Below are positions 11,591 through 38,300 of a stretch of 64,000 nucleotides of DNA, piece after piece (position 1 is the stretch's first letter; every line of letters starts with the position of its first letter). Source of the DNA: an uncultured Clostridia bacterium (GTDB lineage Bacteria > Bacillota > Clostridia > Christensenellales > UBA1242); contig CAMSQA010000001.1 in NCBI GenBank assembly GCA_947062475.1, positions 815 to 64,814 of the forward strand, given 5' to 3'. The notes under the pieces are model-generated. The model was not told the origin of the DNA and ran no database searches. It saw nothing but the letters and a program-made list of their open reading frames with translations. Position numbers and translations under genes: made by a program.

Positions 11591-12550
11591 TTATATAATA
11601 CCCGCAACTGCAAAATATCCAATCAGTGCAGCTAAACCAAATATTAAAGTAACAATGCAATAACCTACAACTATTCGATTTTCATGCACACCAAGCTGTT
11701 CAAAATGATGATGCAAAGGTGCCATTTTAAAAATTCTCCTGTGAGTCATCTTATAATATCCCACCTGCAAAATGTCACTTACAGCAGAAAGAACAAACAT
11801 AATTCCAATTATTGGCAAAATAAGTTCAAGCCCACTGAAAACACAAAGAGAGGCAATCAAGCCACCTAGTGCAAGAGAGCCTGTATCACCCATAAATATC
11901 TTTGCAGGGAAACCATTGAATAATAGAAAACCAAATAAACCTCCTGCCATTGCAAAAGAAATTATCGAATAATTTGTGAAATTTAAAACAGCTAAGATAG
12001 CCCCAAAACAAAGAAGATAGATAAGACTTACGCCACTTGCAAGACCGTCAAGACCATCAGTCAGATTAACTGAATTTGTGACTGCAACAAAAAAAATAAC
12101 AATAAAAGGAATAATAAAAATGCCTAAATTTAAATTTAATCCAAATAAATCTATTGTTGTCCCCACTTTAAAATATATAAAAAGCGAGATGATTAAAGAT
12201 AAACCAACTTGTCCAATTATCTTTTGATATGGTTTAAGTCCCTCGTTTTTATGCCATTTTATTTTTATAAAATCATCTAAAAAACCTAATACGCCATATC
12301 CTAGCATTATCAATAAAATAAGCACCGAATTAAAAGGTTCACCTCTTAAAAAAATCGCTGATGCAAAAATGCAGGCAGAGATAAAGATCCAGCCACCCAT
12401 TGTCGGAGTTCCACTCTTACCAATATGTTTATCAACATAATGAAGAATAGTTTGTGAAAGATGAAATTTTTTGCAAACAAACAAAATAGGAATGCCAAAA
12501 ATAATAGCACTAATCAGCCCAACTAAAAAAACAAGAAAGAAATTCAACAT
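11591..12550 (-). CDS. mraY: Phospho-N-acetylmuramoyl-pentapeptide transferase MraY
   Basis: 319 aa. Motifs: GTPTMGG, NLTDGLDGLA, MGDTGSLALGG, APLHHHFE. Confidence 0.95.
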   Translation of the reverse strand: MLNFFLVFLVGLISAIIFGIPILFVCKKFHLSQTILHYVDKHIGKSGTPTMGGWIFISACIFASAIFLRGEPFNSVLILLIMLGYGVLGFLDDFIKIKWHKNEGLKPYQKIIGQVGLSLIISLFIYFKVGTTIDLFGLNLNLGIFIIPFIVIFFVAVTNSVNLTDGLDGLASGVSLIYLLCFGAILAVLNFTNYSIISFAMAGGLFGFLLFNGFPAKIFMGDTGSLALGGLIASLCVFSGLELILPIIGIMFVLSAVSDILQVGYYKMTHRRIFKMAPLHHHFEQLGVHENRIVVGYCIVTLIFGLAALIGYFAVAGII

Positions 12551-12688
12551 AATTGCACCCCTTTTTCATTATATGATTATGATTTGCAAGATATTAAATT
12601 TCTTTCATAAATATGTTAATTTATATTAAAAACTCATTTTTTTATGATTTTTCTCATTTTTAATGCATATTTTGATGAAAATATTAAA

Positions 12689-14197
12689 TTAAACGTTGTT
12701 TTCTTCTTCATAAAAATTTTGCTTTTCGTGTTTAGACAAAGCACTGTTTTTAAGTTTTCTTTCTCGCAGCAAAAAATCTTCAATCACCTCAAAATCACTA
12801 TAAGGATATTTCACGCCTTGAATTTCTTGATACTTTTCAGCACCTTTTCCTGCGATAATGATAGTTTCATTATCTTTATAATGATTTAGCGCAAACTCAA
12901 TTGCCTTTCTTCTGTTTTGAATTACCCGATAGTTTGCGTTAACAACACCTTTTTCAATATCTTGAATAATTTTCATCGGCTGTTCAAAGCGCGGATTGTC
13001 ACTTGTCAAGATTATTTCATCTGCATACTTTGACGCAATCTCTCCCATGATAGGTCTTTTCAATTTATCACGATTTCCGCCACACCCAAAAATAGCAACC
13101 ACCTTTCCTTTTGCAAGTTCAATCGCAGTCTGAAGCACTTTTTCAAGACCATCTGGCGTATGAGCAAAATCAACAACAATATTGACATCGCCATTTTTTA
13201 TAATATTAAATCTTCCTTCAACAGGTTTTATTACTTTAAAAGCATCGATAATATTGTAGAAAGAAATTCCTAGATTTCTACAAACCGCGATTGCAGCTAA
13301 AGAATTTTCAATATTAAACTGTCCTTGCAACGGAATTTCTATGCTGAAAACCTTATTTTTATAGTCACGACAGACAATCCTGCTGGAATCAAAGTCCTTT
13401 TTCAACACTTCACAGCTAATATCACAGCTTCCATTAAAACCATAACTTAAAAGTCTGATATCACTTTTTTCTTTTAGACTTTGAATATAATCCTTGCCAT
13501 CACAATATATGCCAAGTTTACATTTTTCCTTTTTGAAAAGTTTCAGCTTCGCATCAGCATAACTATCCATGTTGCCAAAGAAATCTAAATGATCTTCAGT
13601 TATGTTTGTAAGCACGCCTATCTCAAATGTAATACCATCAAGTTTGTTAAGTGCAAGAGCATGTGCAGAAGCTTCCATAAACACATATTCGACACCTTTT
13701 TCTTTCATTTCATATAAAATTGAATGGAGCAAAAATGGATCAGGTGTTGTAAAACCTGTATCTTTTGGATCACCATCTATTTTTGCACCTAGCGTGCCAA
13801 TGACACCCACTTTATATCCAGCGGCACGCATAATATCTGCACATAAGTTGCTTGTTGTTGTCTTTCCATTTGTTCCTGTTATTGCGATTATTTTAAGTTG
13901 ATCACATGCTCTGCCAAAAAAGTTTTTAGACATTATCGCATATGCCGATCTTGCATTATCAACTGTTATTATCTTCTCGCCATCAAAATTCTTTTCTGTA
14001 ATTATACAACTTGCACCTCTAGATAAAGCCACATTTATATAATCATTTCCATCAAAGTTTTCACCTTTTATTGCAACAAAAACATCACCTTGTTCAACCT
14101 GCCTACTGTCAATTTTAATTCCAGAAACATTGATTTTCTCTATCTTTTTTTTATCAACTTTTATATCAACATCTTCCAATAATTCAGCTAATTTCAT
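12689..14197 (-). CDS. murE: UDP-N-acetylmuramoyl-L-alanyl-D-glutamate--2,6-diaminopimelate ligase MurE
   Basis: 502 aa. P-loop ITGTNGKTTT. A DNPR motif (LTSDNPRFEQP) suggests meso-DAP specificity. Confidence 0.9.
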   Translation of the reverse strand: MKLAELLEDVDIKVDKKKIEKINVSGIKIDSRQVEQGDVFVAIKGENFDGNDYINVALSRGASCIITEKNFDGEKIITVDNARSAYAIMSKNFFGRACDQLKIIAITGTNGKTTTSNLCADIMRAAGYKVGVIGTLGAKIDGDPKDTGFTTPDPFLLHSILYEMKEKGVEYVFMEASAHALALNKLDGITFEIGVLTNITEDHLDFFGNMDSYADAKLKLFKKEKCKLGIYCDGKDYIQSLKEKSDIRLLSYGFNGSCDISCEVLKKDFDSSRIVCRDYKNKVFSIEIPLQGQFNIENSLAAIAVCRNLGISFYNIIDAFKVIKPVEGRFNIIKNGDVNIVVDFAHTPDGLEKVLQTAIELAKGKVVAIFGCGGNRDKLKRPIMGEIASKYADEIILTSDNPRFEQPMKIIQDIEKGVVNANYRVIQNRRKAIEFALNHYKDNETIIIAGKGAEKYQEIQGVKYPYSDFEVIEDFLLRERKLKNSALSKHEKQNFYEEENNV

Positions 14198-34670: not shown

Positions 34671-34712
34671 AATTATATATTATTTGACAGATTTTGCAAT
34701 TATCACAAAAAA

Positions 34713-34779
34713 TTGTCAGTCATCATTGATTTTTGAAATTTTCAACCCCTATAATTACCTGCAAAGGAGAATAAGATGA
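34713..34779 (+). repeat. Copy 1 of a 67-bp promoter/RBS/start cassette
   Basis: 65/67 identical to 35851-35917. The mismatches are at 34756 and 34759. Confidence 0.9.
34726..34755 (+). promoter_or_regulatory. Sigma-A-type promoter TTGATT-18-TATAAT within repeat copy 1
   Basis: Hexamers read directly. The AAAGGAG RBS and ATG at 34776 follow. Confidence 0.5.
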
Positions 34780-35348
34780 ATATATTAGAGCTAATAGGCA
34801 ATTTCTTAAAATTGAATCTGGGGATTCCTTGCGATTGCTGGGCTATACGAAGAAGCCGAAGTAAAAAAAATATTGAAACGTGCAAAGGAGAAGCAACCTA
34901 TGACGAAGCAACCAATACTTGTGCACATTGTGTAGCATTAAACCAAACAATATTTAAAGGAAACAATCTGCCTATGTTTAAACATTTTCGTTGCAAATGC
35001 CTATGGATACCTACACAGTTAAATAATGTTATACTCGACTTTCCTCAAGATAAAATCACAAAATACTTATTATATGAACCAAATAAATTTGCAATGATGA
35101 GAAGCATGGGTTATAATAAAGAAAATGCAAATGAAATATATGAAAAGATTTCAAAAGAAGTTTCAAAAGGATTTCTTAATAATCAATATCAATTAAAATC
35201 TTTTAATAATCATGGCCAACATATTCAAATAAATTTTATTCTAGACGGCAAAAATGAACATTCTCATGAGCTATTCAACTGTCACACTGGTTGTGTTGTT
35301 TGGCCAAACGGCAAAATAAAAATTGCAACACCATTAATAAAAGATTAA
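34776..35348 (+). CDS. Truncated MuF (SPP1 gp7) C-terminal tip fused to a DUF6883-like domain; putative orphan toxin module
   Basis: 190 aa. TCAHCVALNQTIF...LP.FKHFRCKCLWIP matches the C-terminal end of phage MuF/gp7 head-morphogenesis domains. The C-terminal half (KITKYLLYEPNK...GY...W....P) resembles DUF6883. Confidence 0.5.
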   Translation: MNILELIGNFLKLNLGIPCDCWAIRRSRSKKNIETCKGEATYDEATNTCAHCVALNQTIFKGNNLPMFKHFRCKCLWIPTQLNNVILDFPQDKITKYLLYEPNKFAMMRSMGYNKENANEIYEKISKEVSKGFLNNQYQLKSFNNHGQHIQINFILDGKNEHSHELFNCHTGCVVWPNGKIKIATPLIKD

Positions 35349-35360
35349 AGGAGGAAAAAT

Positions 35361-35696
35361 ATGAAATGGTTAGATCAAGTAAGAGTAACTGTCAGCAAAA
35401 AAAAATATGAAAAGGAAGGTGTTTTTAAAGGAGCAATAGGAACTATAATTTTATCGGAAATTAGATATAATCAATTTGAAGTTGTTTTCTCAAATCCAGA
35501 CGGAAGTGATTATGCTGAAATAGAAATAAATGTTTCAGATTTAGAATTAGTAAAAGACAATGGACTTTCAGATCAATCAATTTTACAGGACCTTCCCAAA
35601 CATGATCCACATTGGTGGTGCAAAGTTGAAGATGGATATATCTTGAATCTCTTAGGCGAAAAGAAAAACAAAATCCCCTATGACTACAATTCTTAA
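35361..35696 (+). CDS. DUF4926-like protein (putative cognate antitoxin/immunity)
   Basis: 111 aa. LDQVRVTVS...GAIGTIIL...FEVVFSNPDGSDYAEIEINVSDLELV fits the DUF4926 pattern. AAAGGAGG RBS, 12 nt after the upstream stop. Confidence 0.5.
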   Translation: MKWLDQVRVTVSKKKYEKEGVFKGAIGTIILSEIRYNQFEVVFSNPDGSDYAEIEINVSDLELVKDNGLSDQSILQDLPKHDPHWWCKVEDGYILNLLGEKKNKIPYDYNS

Positions 35697-35699
35697 AAA

Positions 35700-35722
35700 C
35701 AGAGCGTTTGCTCTGTTTTTTT
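35700..35722 (+). terminator. Rho-independent terminator
   Basis: CAGAGC-GTTT-GCTCTG hairpin plus a T7 run. Confidence 0.7.
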
Positions 35723-35850
35723 GTTTTCCAAATTTTCTTTTCAATAATACTAGCTTTTTAAATAAAAAAACAAACACGATTACCCTTTTATCGCCAAATT
35801 TCCATCTGAATCAGGTTGAACTTTAAAAATCATTACAAAAATGTTAAATT

Positions 35851-35917
35851 TTGTCAGTCATCATTGATTTTTGAAATTTTCAACCCCTATAATCACTTGC
35901 AAAGGAGAATAAGATGA
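35851..35917 (+). repeat. Copy 2 of the 67-bp promoter/RBS/start cassette
   Basis: 65/67 identical to 34713-34779, offset 1138 bp. Confidence 0.9.
35864..35893 (+). promoter_or_regulatory. Sigma-A-type promoter TTGATT-18-TATAAT within repeat copy 2
   Basis: Same hexamers as copy 1. The RBS and ATG at 35914 follow. Confidence 0.5.
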
Positions 35918-36651
35918 TTAAAAACGAACAATTAAGTTCGCTTTTTTCTTTTGATGATAATTATTTTGATTATGATGAAGAAAAGCGAAAGAAAAAACAA
36001 AAACTCGTGAGAAATGAGTTTGAAAAATGTGGCAAATATGGCATGCCGCTTATCAAAAGACAAAATATTGATTTAGATAGAATAGAGCTTTTAAGCTATC
36101 TTAAAACAAAGCCAGCAGATTTAGGAAACAAAAATAAAACCATTCACTTTTTTACTTACGATTGGAATTTTGAAAATGTTTATCAAAAACCAGAACAAGC
36201 ACTTGAAAAATTAGACCAATATTATGCCTTGCTCACACCCGAATTTAGCACCTATAAAGATATGCCTCTTGCAAGACAAATTGACAGTGTTTTCAAAAAT
36301 CGTTGGTGCGGTGCATTCTGGCAAAAGCAAGGAATGCTTGTCATTCCAACAATTTCTTGGGGCTCTTATGGTTGTTTTGATTTCTTTTGCGATGGCGTTG
36401 AAGAGGGCTCAATTGTGGCTGTATCAACATATACAAGAGAAGATAATAAAAAAGGTTTCATGAAAGGCTATAAAATCATGATGGAAAAAATAAAGCCATC
36501 CGCAATCATTTGTTATGGCACACCTTTTGATGAAATGAAAGGGAATATTAAGTCGATTGACCCCTATAATACAAAAGAACTTATTAAAAAAATTGGACTT
36601 GAAGAGTTTACAAGAAAATACTTAGCTGGCGAGCTTTATCCCGAAATTTAG
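35914..36651 (+). CDS. DUF4417 domain-containing protein
   Basis: 245 aa. HFFTYDWNFENVYQKP...LLTPEFSTYKDMPLARQIDSVFKNRWCGAFWQKQGMLVIPTISW matches the DUF4417 core pattern as I recall it. Confidence 0.7.
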   Translation: MIKNEQLSSLFSFDDNYFDYDEEKRKKKQKLVRNEFEKCGKYGMPLIKRQNIDLDRIELLSYLKTKPADLGNKNKTIHFFTYDWNFENVYQKPEQALEKLDQYYALLTPEFSTYKDMPLARQIDSVFKNRWCGAFWQKQGMLVIPTISWGSYGCFDFFCDGVEEGSIVAVSTYTREDNKKGFMKGYKIMMEKIKPSAIICYGTPFDEMKGNIKSIDPYNTKELIKKIGLEEFTRKYLAGELYPEI

Positions 36652-36659
36652 GAGCAAAT

Positions 36660-37478
36660 ATGGAAGAATTTAAACTATCAATAAATATTCTCCCAAAAGG
36701 AGCTTGGAACAACGATTTTAGCAAAACACTCTCTAAAAAAGATTGGGATAAACTTCGTAAATTTGCATTGAAAAGAGCAAATGGAAGATGTGAAATATGT
36801 GGATTTAAAACTCAAGAACTTGACGTCCACGAAGAATGGGATTTTGATAATGAAAAGAAAACACAAACATTAAAATATATCAAGGCAATTTGTTCTCGTT
36901 GTCATGGCGTTAAACACTTTAAAAATTCGGTCAGACTTGGCTTTGGCGAAGAAGCACAAAAGCATTTTTTGAAAGTAAACAATTGCACAGAAATGCAATT
37001 TGCGTCTCATCTTAATAAAGCACTTATTGAATATAATGAAAGAAACAAAGTTTTTCGATGGAAAATTGTCGCAGACCTAAAAAAATTTGGCGGAAGCGGC
37101 ATTAAAATCAATCAAAACGCTATTCCCCTGATAAAAAATCCTTATGAAAATATTAATTGGAATACAATATCATATAACGAAACAAAAAAACTTTTTGAAA
37201 TTACAAGAAACGACAATTTAATAGGAGCACCCAAAATTGTTTCTATTGAAGTAAATAATTATCAAGGCGAAATTCAAATTAAATCACTATTTTCTGACAA
37301 AATTGAATGGTTTTTGGATGAGCAAAAGATTAAGACAAAATATCACACTGCTGGGCTTTTCACAACCAAGCTAAAAGTAAAAGATTTGATTGGCAAGCTG
37401 TTAAATTTCAAAATAATAGGCATCGGTGGTGAAATTGTTTCTAACCCATTTGAACTTCTATCACAGGAGGTGCTATAA
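36660..37478 (+). CDS. HNH-like zinc-finger nuclease-family protein with an unknown ~150-aa C-terminal domain
   Basis: 272 aa. GRCEICG...LDVHEEWDFD...ICSRCHGVKHF has the CxxC...H...CxxCH arrangement of HNH endonucleases. TAGGAG RBS, 8 nt after the upstream stop. Confidence 0.55.
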   Translation: MEEFKLSINILPKGAWNNDFSKTLSKKDWDKLRKFALKRANGRCEICGFKTQELDVHEEWDFDNEKKTQTLKYIKAICSRCHGVKHFKNSVRLGFGEEAQKHFLKVNNCTEMQFASHLNKALIEYNERNKVFRWKIVADLKKFGGSGIKINQNAIPLIKNPYENINWNTISYNETKKLFEITRNDNLIGAPKIVSIEVNNYQGEIQIKSLFSDKIEWFLDEQKIKTKYHTAGLFTTKLKVKDLIGKLLNFKIIGIGGEIVSNPFELLSQEVL

Positions 37479-37771
37479 TGGGAATGTGTAAATCAAGTGG
37501 CGGAATAAGTTCTCAAGTGGGAAGAGTTGGCTCGTTACCAAGAATATCGCTACCAAACACAAGAATTGATTTATATGATGAAAATGGGAATCTATTACAG
37601 CAAGGATGGTATGGTCCAGACGGCAGAATAATATGGTATCGTGATTGGTCACATGGTGCTGGGCCACATGAATGGCCTCATGACCATTATGTTAATTGGG
37701 ATAATTCTAAAAAACCTAGACCGCCTTATATTGGTCCTAATGGCGAAAAAACCAATCCAAATTATTGTTGA
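37478..37771 (+). CDS. Small His/Pro/Trp-rich protein with a YD-repeat-like segment
   Basis: 97 aa. Its start overlaps the upstream stop (TAATG) and is preceded by AGGAGGTG. IDLYDENGNLLQQGWYGPDGRII resembles an Rhs/YD repeat and is followed by HGAGPHEWPHDH. Confidence 0.5.
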   Translation: MGMCKSSGGISSQVGRVGSLPRISLPNTRIDLYDENGNLLQQGWYGPDGRIIWYRDWSHGAGPHEWPHDHYVNWDNSKKPRPPYIGPNGEKTNPNYC

Positions 37772-37783
37772 AAGGAGTATAGT

Positions 37784-38251
37784 ATGGAAAACAAAAATAT
37801 AAAAGATAAAATTTATGAAAAAAAATGTGAAGTTTGTGGAAAAACAACAAAAGTTGATATTTACGAACAAGGAAAATGTAAATATTGCGGATGGTTTAAT
37901 TGTTTTCTTAATGAAGAAAATCCTAACATTGTTGCTTTGCCTAATACTCTTTCCCTCAATAGAGCTCGACAACTTTTTAAAGAAGGAAAACCTTTTGACC
38001 TAGACTTAAATGATTTCATTGAAGCGTTGTATAGTTATGGTGAAATGCAGTTTGAATACAATGGAACATATTATGCAGTTGAACTCGTCGGAAAGAATAA
38101 AGATGAAATCAATATTCAACTTTATAACTCAAAAACAAAAGAAATGTCAATTTATAAAGATGAAACAGATTTTAAAAACAATGCAAAAGTCGAAGGAAAA
38201 CTTTTAAGAGATGTTTGGGACGAAACAACTGACAGATATTGGTTGCAATAA
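37784..38251 (+). CDS. CPCC-family cysteine-rich zinc-ribbon protein with a C-terminal domain of unknown function
   Basis: 155 aa. CEVCG...CKYCGW...PNTLSLNRARQLFKEGKP resembles the Cys_rich_CPCC domain. AAAGGAG RBS, 12 nt after the upstream stop. Confidence 0.55.
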   Translation: MENKNIKDKIYEKKCEVCGKTTKVDIYEQGKCKYCGWFNCFLNEENPNIVALPNTLSLNRARQLFKEGKPFDLDLNDFIEALYSYGEMQFEYNGTYYAVELVGKNKDEINIQLYNSKTKEMSIYKDETDFKNNAKVEGKLLRDVWDETTDRYWLQ

Positions 38252-38300
38252 ATGTTTACAATTTCAACACAATAAAAAACAAAAATATGGTGATACACAA

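Follow-up and report, generated by a model that had tools for sequence, protein, structure and literature searches.

A four-gene operon of gut Clostridia couples a DUF4417-HNH backbone to an exchangeable candidate toxin-immunity cassette

The DNA considered here is a stretch of 64,000 nucleotides (positions 815 to 64,814, forward strand, of contig CAMSQA010000001.1, assembly GCA_947062475.1) from an uncultured Clostridia bacterium of the Christensenellales, and this whole stretch is referred to below as the window. It contains an operon of four short genes, the products of which were named P1 to P4 in window order: a DUF4417 protein, an HNH-type protein, a small protein related to the terminal domains of secreted toxins, and a CPCC zinc-ribbon protein (Table 1). 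An earlier note on the same DNA had proposed these genes as a tightly coupled candidate system, and the four reading frames and their junctions lie exactly where it placed them. P1 and P2 are separated by 8 nt, P2 and P3 share a TAATG stop/start overlap that is preceded by AGGAGGTG, and P3 and P4 are 12 nt apart. Comparison with related loci indicates that the operon is a conserved, mobile four-component unit, in which a putative toxin-immunity cassette (P3-P4) is exchanged independently of a DUF4417-HNH backbone (P1-P2).

The conservation of the operon was surveyed by an alignment scan of GTDB species representatives with P2. The scan returned 80 loci, all open reading frames (ORFs) of which were classified by family hidden Markov models, and counts are given over 79. 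P1 and P2 occur together in 77 loci, with the P1 gene directly before the HNH gene in the same number. A CPCC protein, or a fusion of CPCC with DUF4417, is found in 74 and a small partner protein in 72. All four components are present in 70/79, in gut Christensenellales-like Clostridia, and most of the exceptions are cut by contig ends; the proposal of a candidate system is thereby extended to other genomes. Co-occurrence confined to this genome, named in the earlier note as a refuting outcome, is clearly contradicted, and as each of the four proteins also has conserved homologues, the arrangement is not due to chance. Neighbourhoods of relatives that are just 55–60% identical carry the same four genes, and a neighbourhood search begun from distant P3-like proteins arrived at the same cluster. 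The small partner is not always P3. An unrelated small protein, P3b, replaces or joins it in 23 of the 79 loci, and the gene orders include P1-P2-P3-P4, P3-P4-P1-P2, P3b-CPCC-P1-P2 and others. The TAATG overlap of P2 and P3 is conserved in related loci. Additionally, CPCC is fused to the N-terminus of DUF4417 in loci L043, L084, L086 and L093; the L043 fusion matches both PF14206 (45.9 bits) and PF14386 (170 bits) above the Pfam cut-offs. Cassettes stand in tandem in L018, L037 and L039, and L024, L027 and L033 have arrays of additional CPCC genes. Because the four components co-occur in several orders and in three genomic settings, they are regarded as one unit.

The two halves of this unit evolve differently. 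P1 and P2 co-vary strongly (r=0.81). Across 48 cassettes, P3 and P4 co-vary with each other (r=0.60), whereas the cassette and the backbone show values of only 0.15–0.36. In 179 locus pairs, P1 is more than 85% identical, yet P3 is less than 60% identical. The earlier picture of a nuclease-bearing module with small partner proteins consequently has to be replaced by that of a conserved DUF4417-HNH backbone with a swappable toxin-immunity cassette.

Table 1. Features of the operon and of its surroundings in the window
Feature	Position	Strand	Size	Remarks
P1, DUF4417 protein	35914-36651	+	245 aa	
P2, predicted HNH nuclease domain and C-terminal domain	36660-37478	+	272 aa	
P3, predicted free-standing toxin domain	37478-37771	+	97 aa	
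P4, candidate immunity protein, CPCC	37784-38251	+	155 aa	
Promoter/5'-untranslated cassette, copy 2	35846-35920	+		TTGATT-18-TATAAT at 35864-35893, GGAG ribosome-binding site, ATG of gene 1
Terminator-like hairpin, bidirectional	38541-38559			7-bp stem, 5 G-C pairs, T-runs on both strands; closes the operon
Second terminator-like hairpin	35695-35720			
Promoter/5'-untranslated cassette, copy 1	34708-34782			heads the upstream gene pair
Upstream pair, first gene	34776-35348		190 aa	weak DUF6883 match (E=0.012)
Upstream pair, second gene	35361-35696		111 aa	DUF4926-like (E=3.4e-5)
ORF between P4 and the terminator	38211-38441		76 aa	weak ankyrin-repeat matches (E~0.02)
ORF without family match	40277-41458		393 aa	
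ORF with internal repeats	41686-43029		447 aa	weak UPF0738 match only
NUDIX protein at the island edge	44073-44624			PADLOC candidate defence model PDC-S07 (E=1.7e-11)

The three settings of the module are beside an amidase gene, beside a type I restriction-modification (RM) system with an integrase fragment, and between an integrase gene and a tRNA-Thr gene. A tyrosine integrase is encoded directly upstream of the module in L071, L077, L079 and L083, a short integrase gene is present in L001-L003, and L073 retains an integrase remnant. In addition, a type I RM system is found in L001 and an AbiE pair in L073. The tRNA-Thr gene stands 100–250 bp downstream of the HNH gene in L071, L083 and L088; in the last of these the tRNA is present and the integrase is absent. 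Where P3b-CPCC-DUF4417-HNH lies between the tyrosine integrase and tRNA-Thr(GGT), a mini integrative element of ~4 kb is formed, and the module is nearly its whole cargo. In the amidase setting, diverged copies of the first ~55 amidase codons (residues ~3–55) lie on the minus strand beyond the arrays (L018, L020, L022, L025, L027, L031, L040, L041 and L063). They are present twice in L020 and L027, and none was found in the window itself. The module appears to have entered the 5' end of an Amidase_3 gene repeatedly, with the inserted DNA supplying a replacement 5' end.

In P3, the YD-like segment and the histidine cluster to which the earlier note had drawn attention are indeed conserved, but the protein is not a generic miniprotein partner: it corresponds to a toxin domain of RHS and LXG C-termini. 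An exhaustive profile search returned 647 proteins. Many of them are longer proteins with the P3 core at the extreme C-terminus (for example residues 1266-1334 of 1351, 1924-1993 of 2030, 1661-1722 of 1775 and 365-429 of 432). Ten carriers were scanned, five of which are RHS-repeat proteins and one an LXG protein. The domain ends RHS-repeat proteins of 1351, 1775 and 2030 aa and an LXG protein of 432 aa, which sits in a typical type VII secretion system (T7SS) toxin locus; in two of the RHS carriers, the P3-type domain is succeeded by a Tox-WTIP membrane domain. The motifs common to P3 and the carriers can be written as PNS..DLY..DG..QRRxYGxDG..DxD[YF]xH..HxFPHxHxWDW..PR. Within P3, the conserved elements are PNxR, YGxDG and PH68xH70, and D56, H59, H64, H68 and H70 are invariant. 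The AlphaFold2 (AF2) model is all-beta (pLDDT 74). No family for P3 was found in Pfam, NCBIfam or PADLOC, and its profile matched no PDB sequence. Two known names were considered for the domain and rejected, namely Ntox24 (E=0.016 in only 4/13 members) and the ribotoxins (E~0.5). On these matches, P3 can be regarded as homologous to a polymorphic-toxin C-terminal domain, and the P3-type domain as an undescribed putative toxin domain that is absent from Pfam.

P3 consists of this domain and a short conserved N-terminus, MGMCKPSGG, only; there is no signal peptide and no LXG, RHS or other trafficking domain. The gene is translationally coupled and has a strong ribosome-binding site to itself, and P3 is therefore not a silent orphan cassette. 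Some details of the family deserve mention. The N-terminal MGMCKPSGG (37478-37504 in the window) is nearly invariant and becomes MGGKCSPSG in distant members; most members end in Cys, and a loosely similar MEKGPST opens the P3b proteins.

The fourth protein had been described as a CPCC-type zinc ribbon. The window protein alone scores 22.8 bits, under the Pfam CPCC cut-off of 24.5, but the assignment is secured by the family profile, which matches the PDB entries 8EY3_A and 8EY4_I, 'Cys_rich_CPCC domain-containing protein', at E=2e-6. P4 is more than a zinc ribbon, as a member of its family has been solved in an E. coli complex; 8EY4 is referred to as a toxin-immunity structure (PMC13068155). 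The four Cys residues of the ribbon are invariant. The profile of P3b matches chain A of the same entry, a 'PT-VENN domain-containing protein' (E=5.6e-7), and then colicin D tRNase domains. Both partners of the complex therefore have homologues in the cassette slot. P3 and P3b are unrelated to each other (hhalign probability 0.3%), and the two small proteins are followed by different CPCC proteins. After P3 there is always a long one of at least 143 aa with an extra C-terminal domain; after P3b there is a short one of at most 129 aa or a CPCC-DUF4417 fusion. The extra domain, found only with P3-type toxins, is probably the P3-specific part of P4. P4 directly follows P3 in all P3-bearing loci, and its only PADLOC match is a chance-level one to Cas10 (E=0.013). 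Taken at the level of sequence, a toxin/immunity role for P3 and P4 is strongly supported. The toxin/immunity hypothesis of the earlier note thus gains ground for genes 3 and 4, through the RHS/LXG domain matches and the matches to 8EY4 chains I and A.

The backbone of the module is formed by P1 and P2. The HNH-type core claimed for gene 2 was recovered in residues 4-138, which match the HNH family phrog_5200 of PHROGs (E=4.8e-29). No Pfam HNH model reached E<=0.1 with P2, and the P2 profile matched no PDB sequence. P2 shares ~40% identity with HNH endonucleases that large enterobacterial phages encode as free-standing proteins. Its residues C44, C47, H57, E58, C78, C81, H82 and H86 are invariant among 21 relatives, in the pattern CxxC..DxHE..CxxCHGxxH, so the HNH catalytic and zinc residues are all kept, and P2 is predicted to be an active HNH nuclease. 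The C-terminal ~130 aa are as conserved as the HNH half and have no relatives detectable in Pfam or in PDB profile searches. No hidden homology between P2 and P4 was found, and an exact-sequence look-up of P2 showed it to be absent from the collection searched. Many P2 relatives end in 'PQEVL', the codons of which overlap the AGGAGG ribosome-binding site of gene 3; the last residues of P2 may be constrained by this downstream translation signal. A programmed frameshift joining P2 and P3 was considered and rejected, since many loci have P3 upstream of P1.

P1 was correctly recognized as a DUF4417 protein (PF14386, E=6.5e-50, 169.6 bits against a gathering cut-off of 28.9), a family with no described function in the searchable literature. 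It is the best conserved component of the operon, with a mean pairwise identity of 0.74. In its AF2 model (pLDDT 69.5, pTM 0.70), an alpha/beta fold with repeated strand-helix units can be seen, and P1 is predicted to be an enzyme-like alpha/beta protein. The P1 profile matched no sequence in the PDB.

The operon lies within a plus-strand island (~32.7-44.6 kb) of a mostly minus-strand region of ~32% GC. It is flanked by SpoIIE, guanylate kinase and Amidase_3 genes on one side and by TIM-barrel and NUDIX genes on the other. Its nearest relatives are gut metagenome-assembled genomes labelled Christensenella, Christensenellales or Clostridia. A duplicated promoter cassette had been noticed before the operon, and it is confirmed as a 75-nt direct repeat that comprises promoter, ribosome-binding site and ATG, with two copies that are 93% identical and a TTGATT-18-TATAAT promoter-like site in each. 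A search of the related loci for this cassette found it in none. The two-gene operon under copy 1, upstream of P1, looks as if inserted with its own promoter copy, and it resembles another small toxin/antidote-type pair. L033 and L042 have homologues of this pair upstream of their modules, and ORFs like its 111-aa member occur alone in L045. The terminator that had been placed at 38541-38566 is present as a hairpin, but it ends at 38559. The 76-aa ORF in front of it may be the remnant of another gene. Further downstream, the 393-aa ORF matches neither Pfam nor PADLOC, and a 73%-identical copy follows the module in L029. The 447-aa ORF has diverged internal repeats, which at the DNA level are spaced start to start by 84, 168 and 252 nt (multiples of 84), as well as by 171 and 423 nt.

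These findings allow the operon to be read as a mobile four-component conflict module, with two interlocked poison-antidote pairs, that serves addiction and/or abortive defence; we put the chance that this is correct at about even. In such a module, P3, a domain that secreted RHS and LXG toxins normally carry at their C-termini, would be made as a free-standing cytoplasmic toxin, and P4, made from the next gene, would neutralise it by direct binding. The P3-P4 pair would be an exchangeable cassette, the place of which is taken elsewhere by a colicin-D-like toxin with a short CPCC protein, by several cassettes or by extra CPCC genes. P1, made just before P2, would keep the P2 nuclease harmless to the host, either through DNA modification, as in an RM pair, or through binding to the nuclease. 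The CPCC-DUF4417 fusions would then be two proposed antidotes in one protein. The module would move on small integrative elements and into the 5' insertion hot spot of the amidase gene. It would most likely stabilise the DNA that carries it (addiction), kill the cell when its balance is upset, for example by a phage (abortive defence), or do both.

Several points weigh against this reading. The toxicity and the neutralisation attributed to the operon proteins are predictions. The P3 model had no fold match in a Foldseek search of the PDB. Chain I of 8EY4 is presumably the immunity chain, to judge from its label and from chain A being named as a PT-VENN protein. Downstream of the RHS and LXG toxins with a P3-type domain lie genes unrelated to P4 (~2 bits); for this reason, the assignment of P4 as the immunity protein of P3 in particular rests on adjacency and co-variation, and it is suggested rather than firm. 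The proposal that P1 is the antidote of P2, and restrains it as an active nuclease, is drawn from adjacency, co-variation and the fusions only. Additionally, immunity proteins are usually less conserved than P1, and DUF4417 is found in phages without an HNH partner.

The best surviving alternative is a new four-component anti-phage system, in which a DpdA-like DUF4417 protein marks the DNA of the host, DNA without the mark is restricted by the HNH protein, and the toxin/CPCC pair is a coupled abortive-infection back-up. It starts from the fold of P1. In a Foldseek search of the P1 model against BFVD, the top three matches are unnamed proteins, 26–30% identical and DUF4417-homologue-like, and ranks 4–6 are all taken by viral proteins annotated as 'queuine tRNA-ribosyltransferase' (E 3e-3 to 3e-2, probability 0.85-0.98). 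Against the PDB there was no significant match, and TGT appeared there at E=0.39. A parallel comes from phages. DUF4417 matched 492 phage records, and in the searchable literature it is mentioned solely as a domain fused to ParB-CTPase folds, enriched in phages and without known function; in these fusions it occupies the same place as DNA methyltransferases. The ParB-fold ATPase DpdB works with the DNA transglycosylase DpdA (PMC10164549), and by analogy the phage ParB-DUF4417 fusions resemble this pairing. Furthermore, type I RM, AbiE and integrase genes adjoin the module in some genomes. On the other side, the TM-score of the viral matches is only ~0.4, the P1 model is of limited confidence and the conserved HFFxYD motif is poorly modelled in it, and the comparison of the DUF4417 profile with E. 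coli Tgt by hhalign was null (probability 0.2%). Genes for preQ0 or queuosine synthesis were not seen in the vicinity. Because of the null Tgt comparison, the weak fold resemblance hints at a lead to the TGT/DpdA DNA transglycosylases and does not amount to a finding. The building of a phage DpdA profile from E. coli Tgt was abandoned, since tblastn gave ordinary Tgt genes only. We rate the anti-phage system as unlikely. The same low standing is given to the more specific proposal that DUF4417 is a distantly DpdA/TGT-like base-exchange or modification enzyme, forming with the HNH protein a new restriction-modification pair that is wired via CPCC to an exchangeable abortive toxin-immunity back-up. 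If it were true, it would explain the frequent ParB-DUF4417 fusions of phages as a means of modifying their own DNA.

Two further records concern DUF4417 itself. In L050, a ParB_N-DUF4417 fusion of 346 aa with phage-type architecture (11868-12908, minus strand) lies a few kilobases from an ordinary module of the same genome. A fecal 'Bacteriophage sp.' scaffold (L100, MT835546.1, 3784-6259) encodes, in this order, a helix-turn-helix protein, an IrrE/M78-like peptidase, DUF4417 and two tightly coupled small unknown ORFs. This record may be chromosomal rather than phage, because housekeeping-like genes follow. Its ORFs after DUF4417 were considered as P3-like and P4-C-terminal-like and were dropped, as neither resemblance was significant.

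A secreted interbacterial polymorphic toxin system, with P3 exported against competitors, P4 protecting kin and DUF4417-HNH as an accessory or delivery part, appears quite improbable. It agrees with the secreted RHS and LXG toxins that bear the P3-type domain elsewhere, and arrays such as those of the extra CPCC genes are a typical trait of interbacterial systems. Yet a 97-aa P3 that lacks the signals and domains named above is difficult to picture as an exported protein, the neighbourhood of the module, both in the window and in the inspected loci, showed no secretion genes, and nucleases and DUF4417 have no known export role. It is also rather improbable, and here our doubt is stronger, that DUF4417-HNH and the toxin-immunity pair are unrelated systems of two genes each, brought together only by a common insertion hot spot. 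The pairs differ in evolutionary rate, the cassette is exchanged independently, and a further small pair, headed by the other copy of the promoter cassette, is present in the island of the window. However, the fusions of CPCC with DUF4417, the co-occurrence of all components in varied orders and in three settings, including mini-elements with essentially only these genes, and the conserved P2/P3 overlap all speak for a functional bond. A remnant of a prophage replication or packaging module is hardly credible: P1 and P2 match PHROGs, DUF4417 and HNH genes are common near terminase genes and DUF4417 lies just upstream of them in Streptococcus phages, but a check prompted by the earlier note, which covered the island of the window and the related loci, turned up no genes for phage structure, terminase, portal or replication and showed housekeeping genes on either side, and in the phages examined (a Christensenellales phage and Streptococcus phage MissD) the ORFs downstream of DUF4417 are unrelated to P2.

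The operon provides the first coherent genomic context for the widespread DUF4417 family, which is locked to a predicted HNH nuclease and, via fusions, to a candidate toxin-immunity pair. The P3-type domain would be a new toxin domain, carried by RHS and LXG toxins among its 647 profile matches and without known fold. It also appears that polymorphic-toxin domains and the CPCC immunity fold have been redeployed as free-standing cytoplasmic pairs on mini integrative elements of abundant uncultured gut Clostridia. Should P1 and P2 prove to be a modification-restriction pair, a new family of DNA-modification enzymes and a new composite defence architecture would be added.

How far does the operon resemble systems that are already known? 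The earlier note had found it unlike any named defence, RM or toxin system. This holds insofar as the PADLOC-DB v2 models have no match for P1-P3 and no more than the chance-level one for P4, and neither PADLOC v2 nor the searchable literature describes the association of DUF4417-HNH with a toxin-immunity cassette, including the fusions. It does not hold for half of the operon, which belongs to a known kind. The operon resembles HNH restriction-modification and the Dpd system (PMC10164549) in that an enzyme-like protein is tightly coupled to a predicted nuclease and that DUF4417 is fused to ParB folds in phages; the fold resemblance of P1 to viral TGT/DpdA-like proteins is weak and tentative. 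It differs in that there is no sequence-level TGT link and that genes for a methyltransferase or for 7-deazaguanine synthesis are missing. Type II toxin-antitoxin or addiction modules likewise combine a small cytoplasmic toxin with a co-transcribed neutralising protein, roles that are predicted from sequence here, and are found on integrative elements beside AbiE and RM genes. In the present operon, however, the toxin gene comes before that of the antidote, no DNA-binding autoregulatory domain can be recognised in the antidote, and there are four components, not two.

The likeness to polymorphic toxin systems of the RHS and LXG/T7SS type (Zhang et al. 2012, PMC3482391) includes the P3 domain common to their C-termini, a candidate immunity gene only 12 nt after the toxin gene, and the use of alternative toxins, P3 or P3b, in one slot, together with duplicated cassettes and arrays of extra CPCC genes. 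Unlike such toxins, P3 lacks trafficking and repeat regions, there is no gene for a large parent toxin in the vicinity, its domain type is outside Pfam, and its gene is translationally coupled with a strong ribosome-binding site of its own. A further close relative is the E. coli pair of 8EY4, a PT-VENN/CdiA-type C-terminal toxin with a CPCC protein. The CPCC part of P4 is homologous to chain I, P3b of related loci is homologous to chain A, and the order of toxin and then CPCC protein is the same. In contrast, P3 of the window is unrelated to chain A, P4 has an extra C-terminal domain, the toxins are free-standing and not the tip of a large CdiA protein, and the pair is locked to the DUF4417-HNH backbone. 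The polymorphic-toxin/immunity cassette is thus of a known kind, and what is new is the free-standing form of the toxin, the undescribed putative toxin domain and the obligatory association with DUF4417 and HNH.

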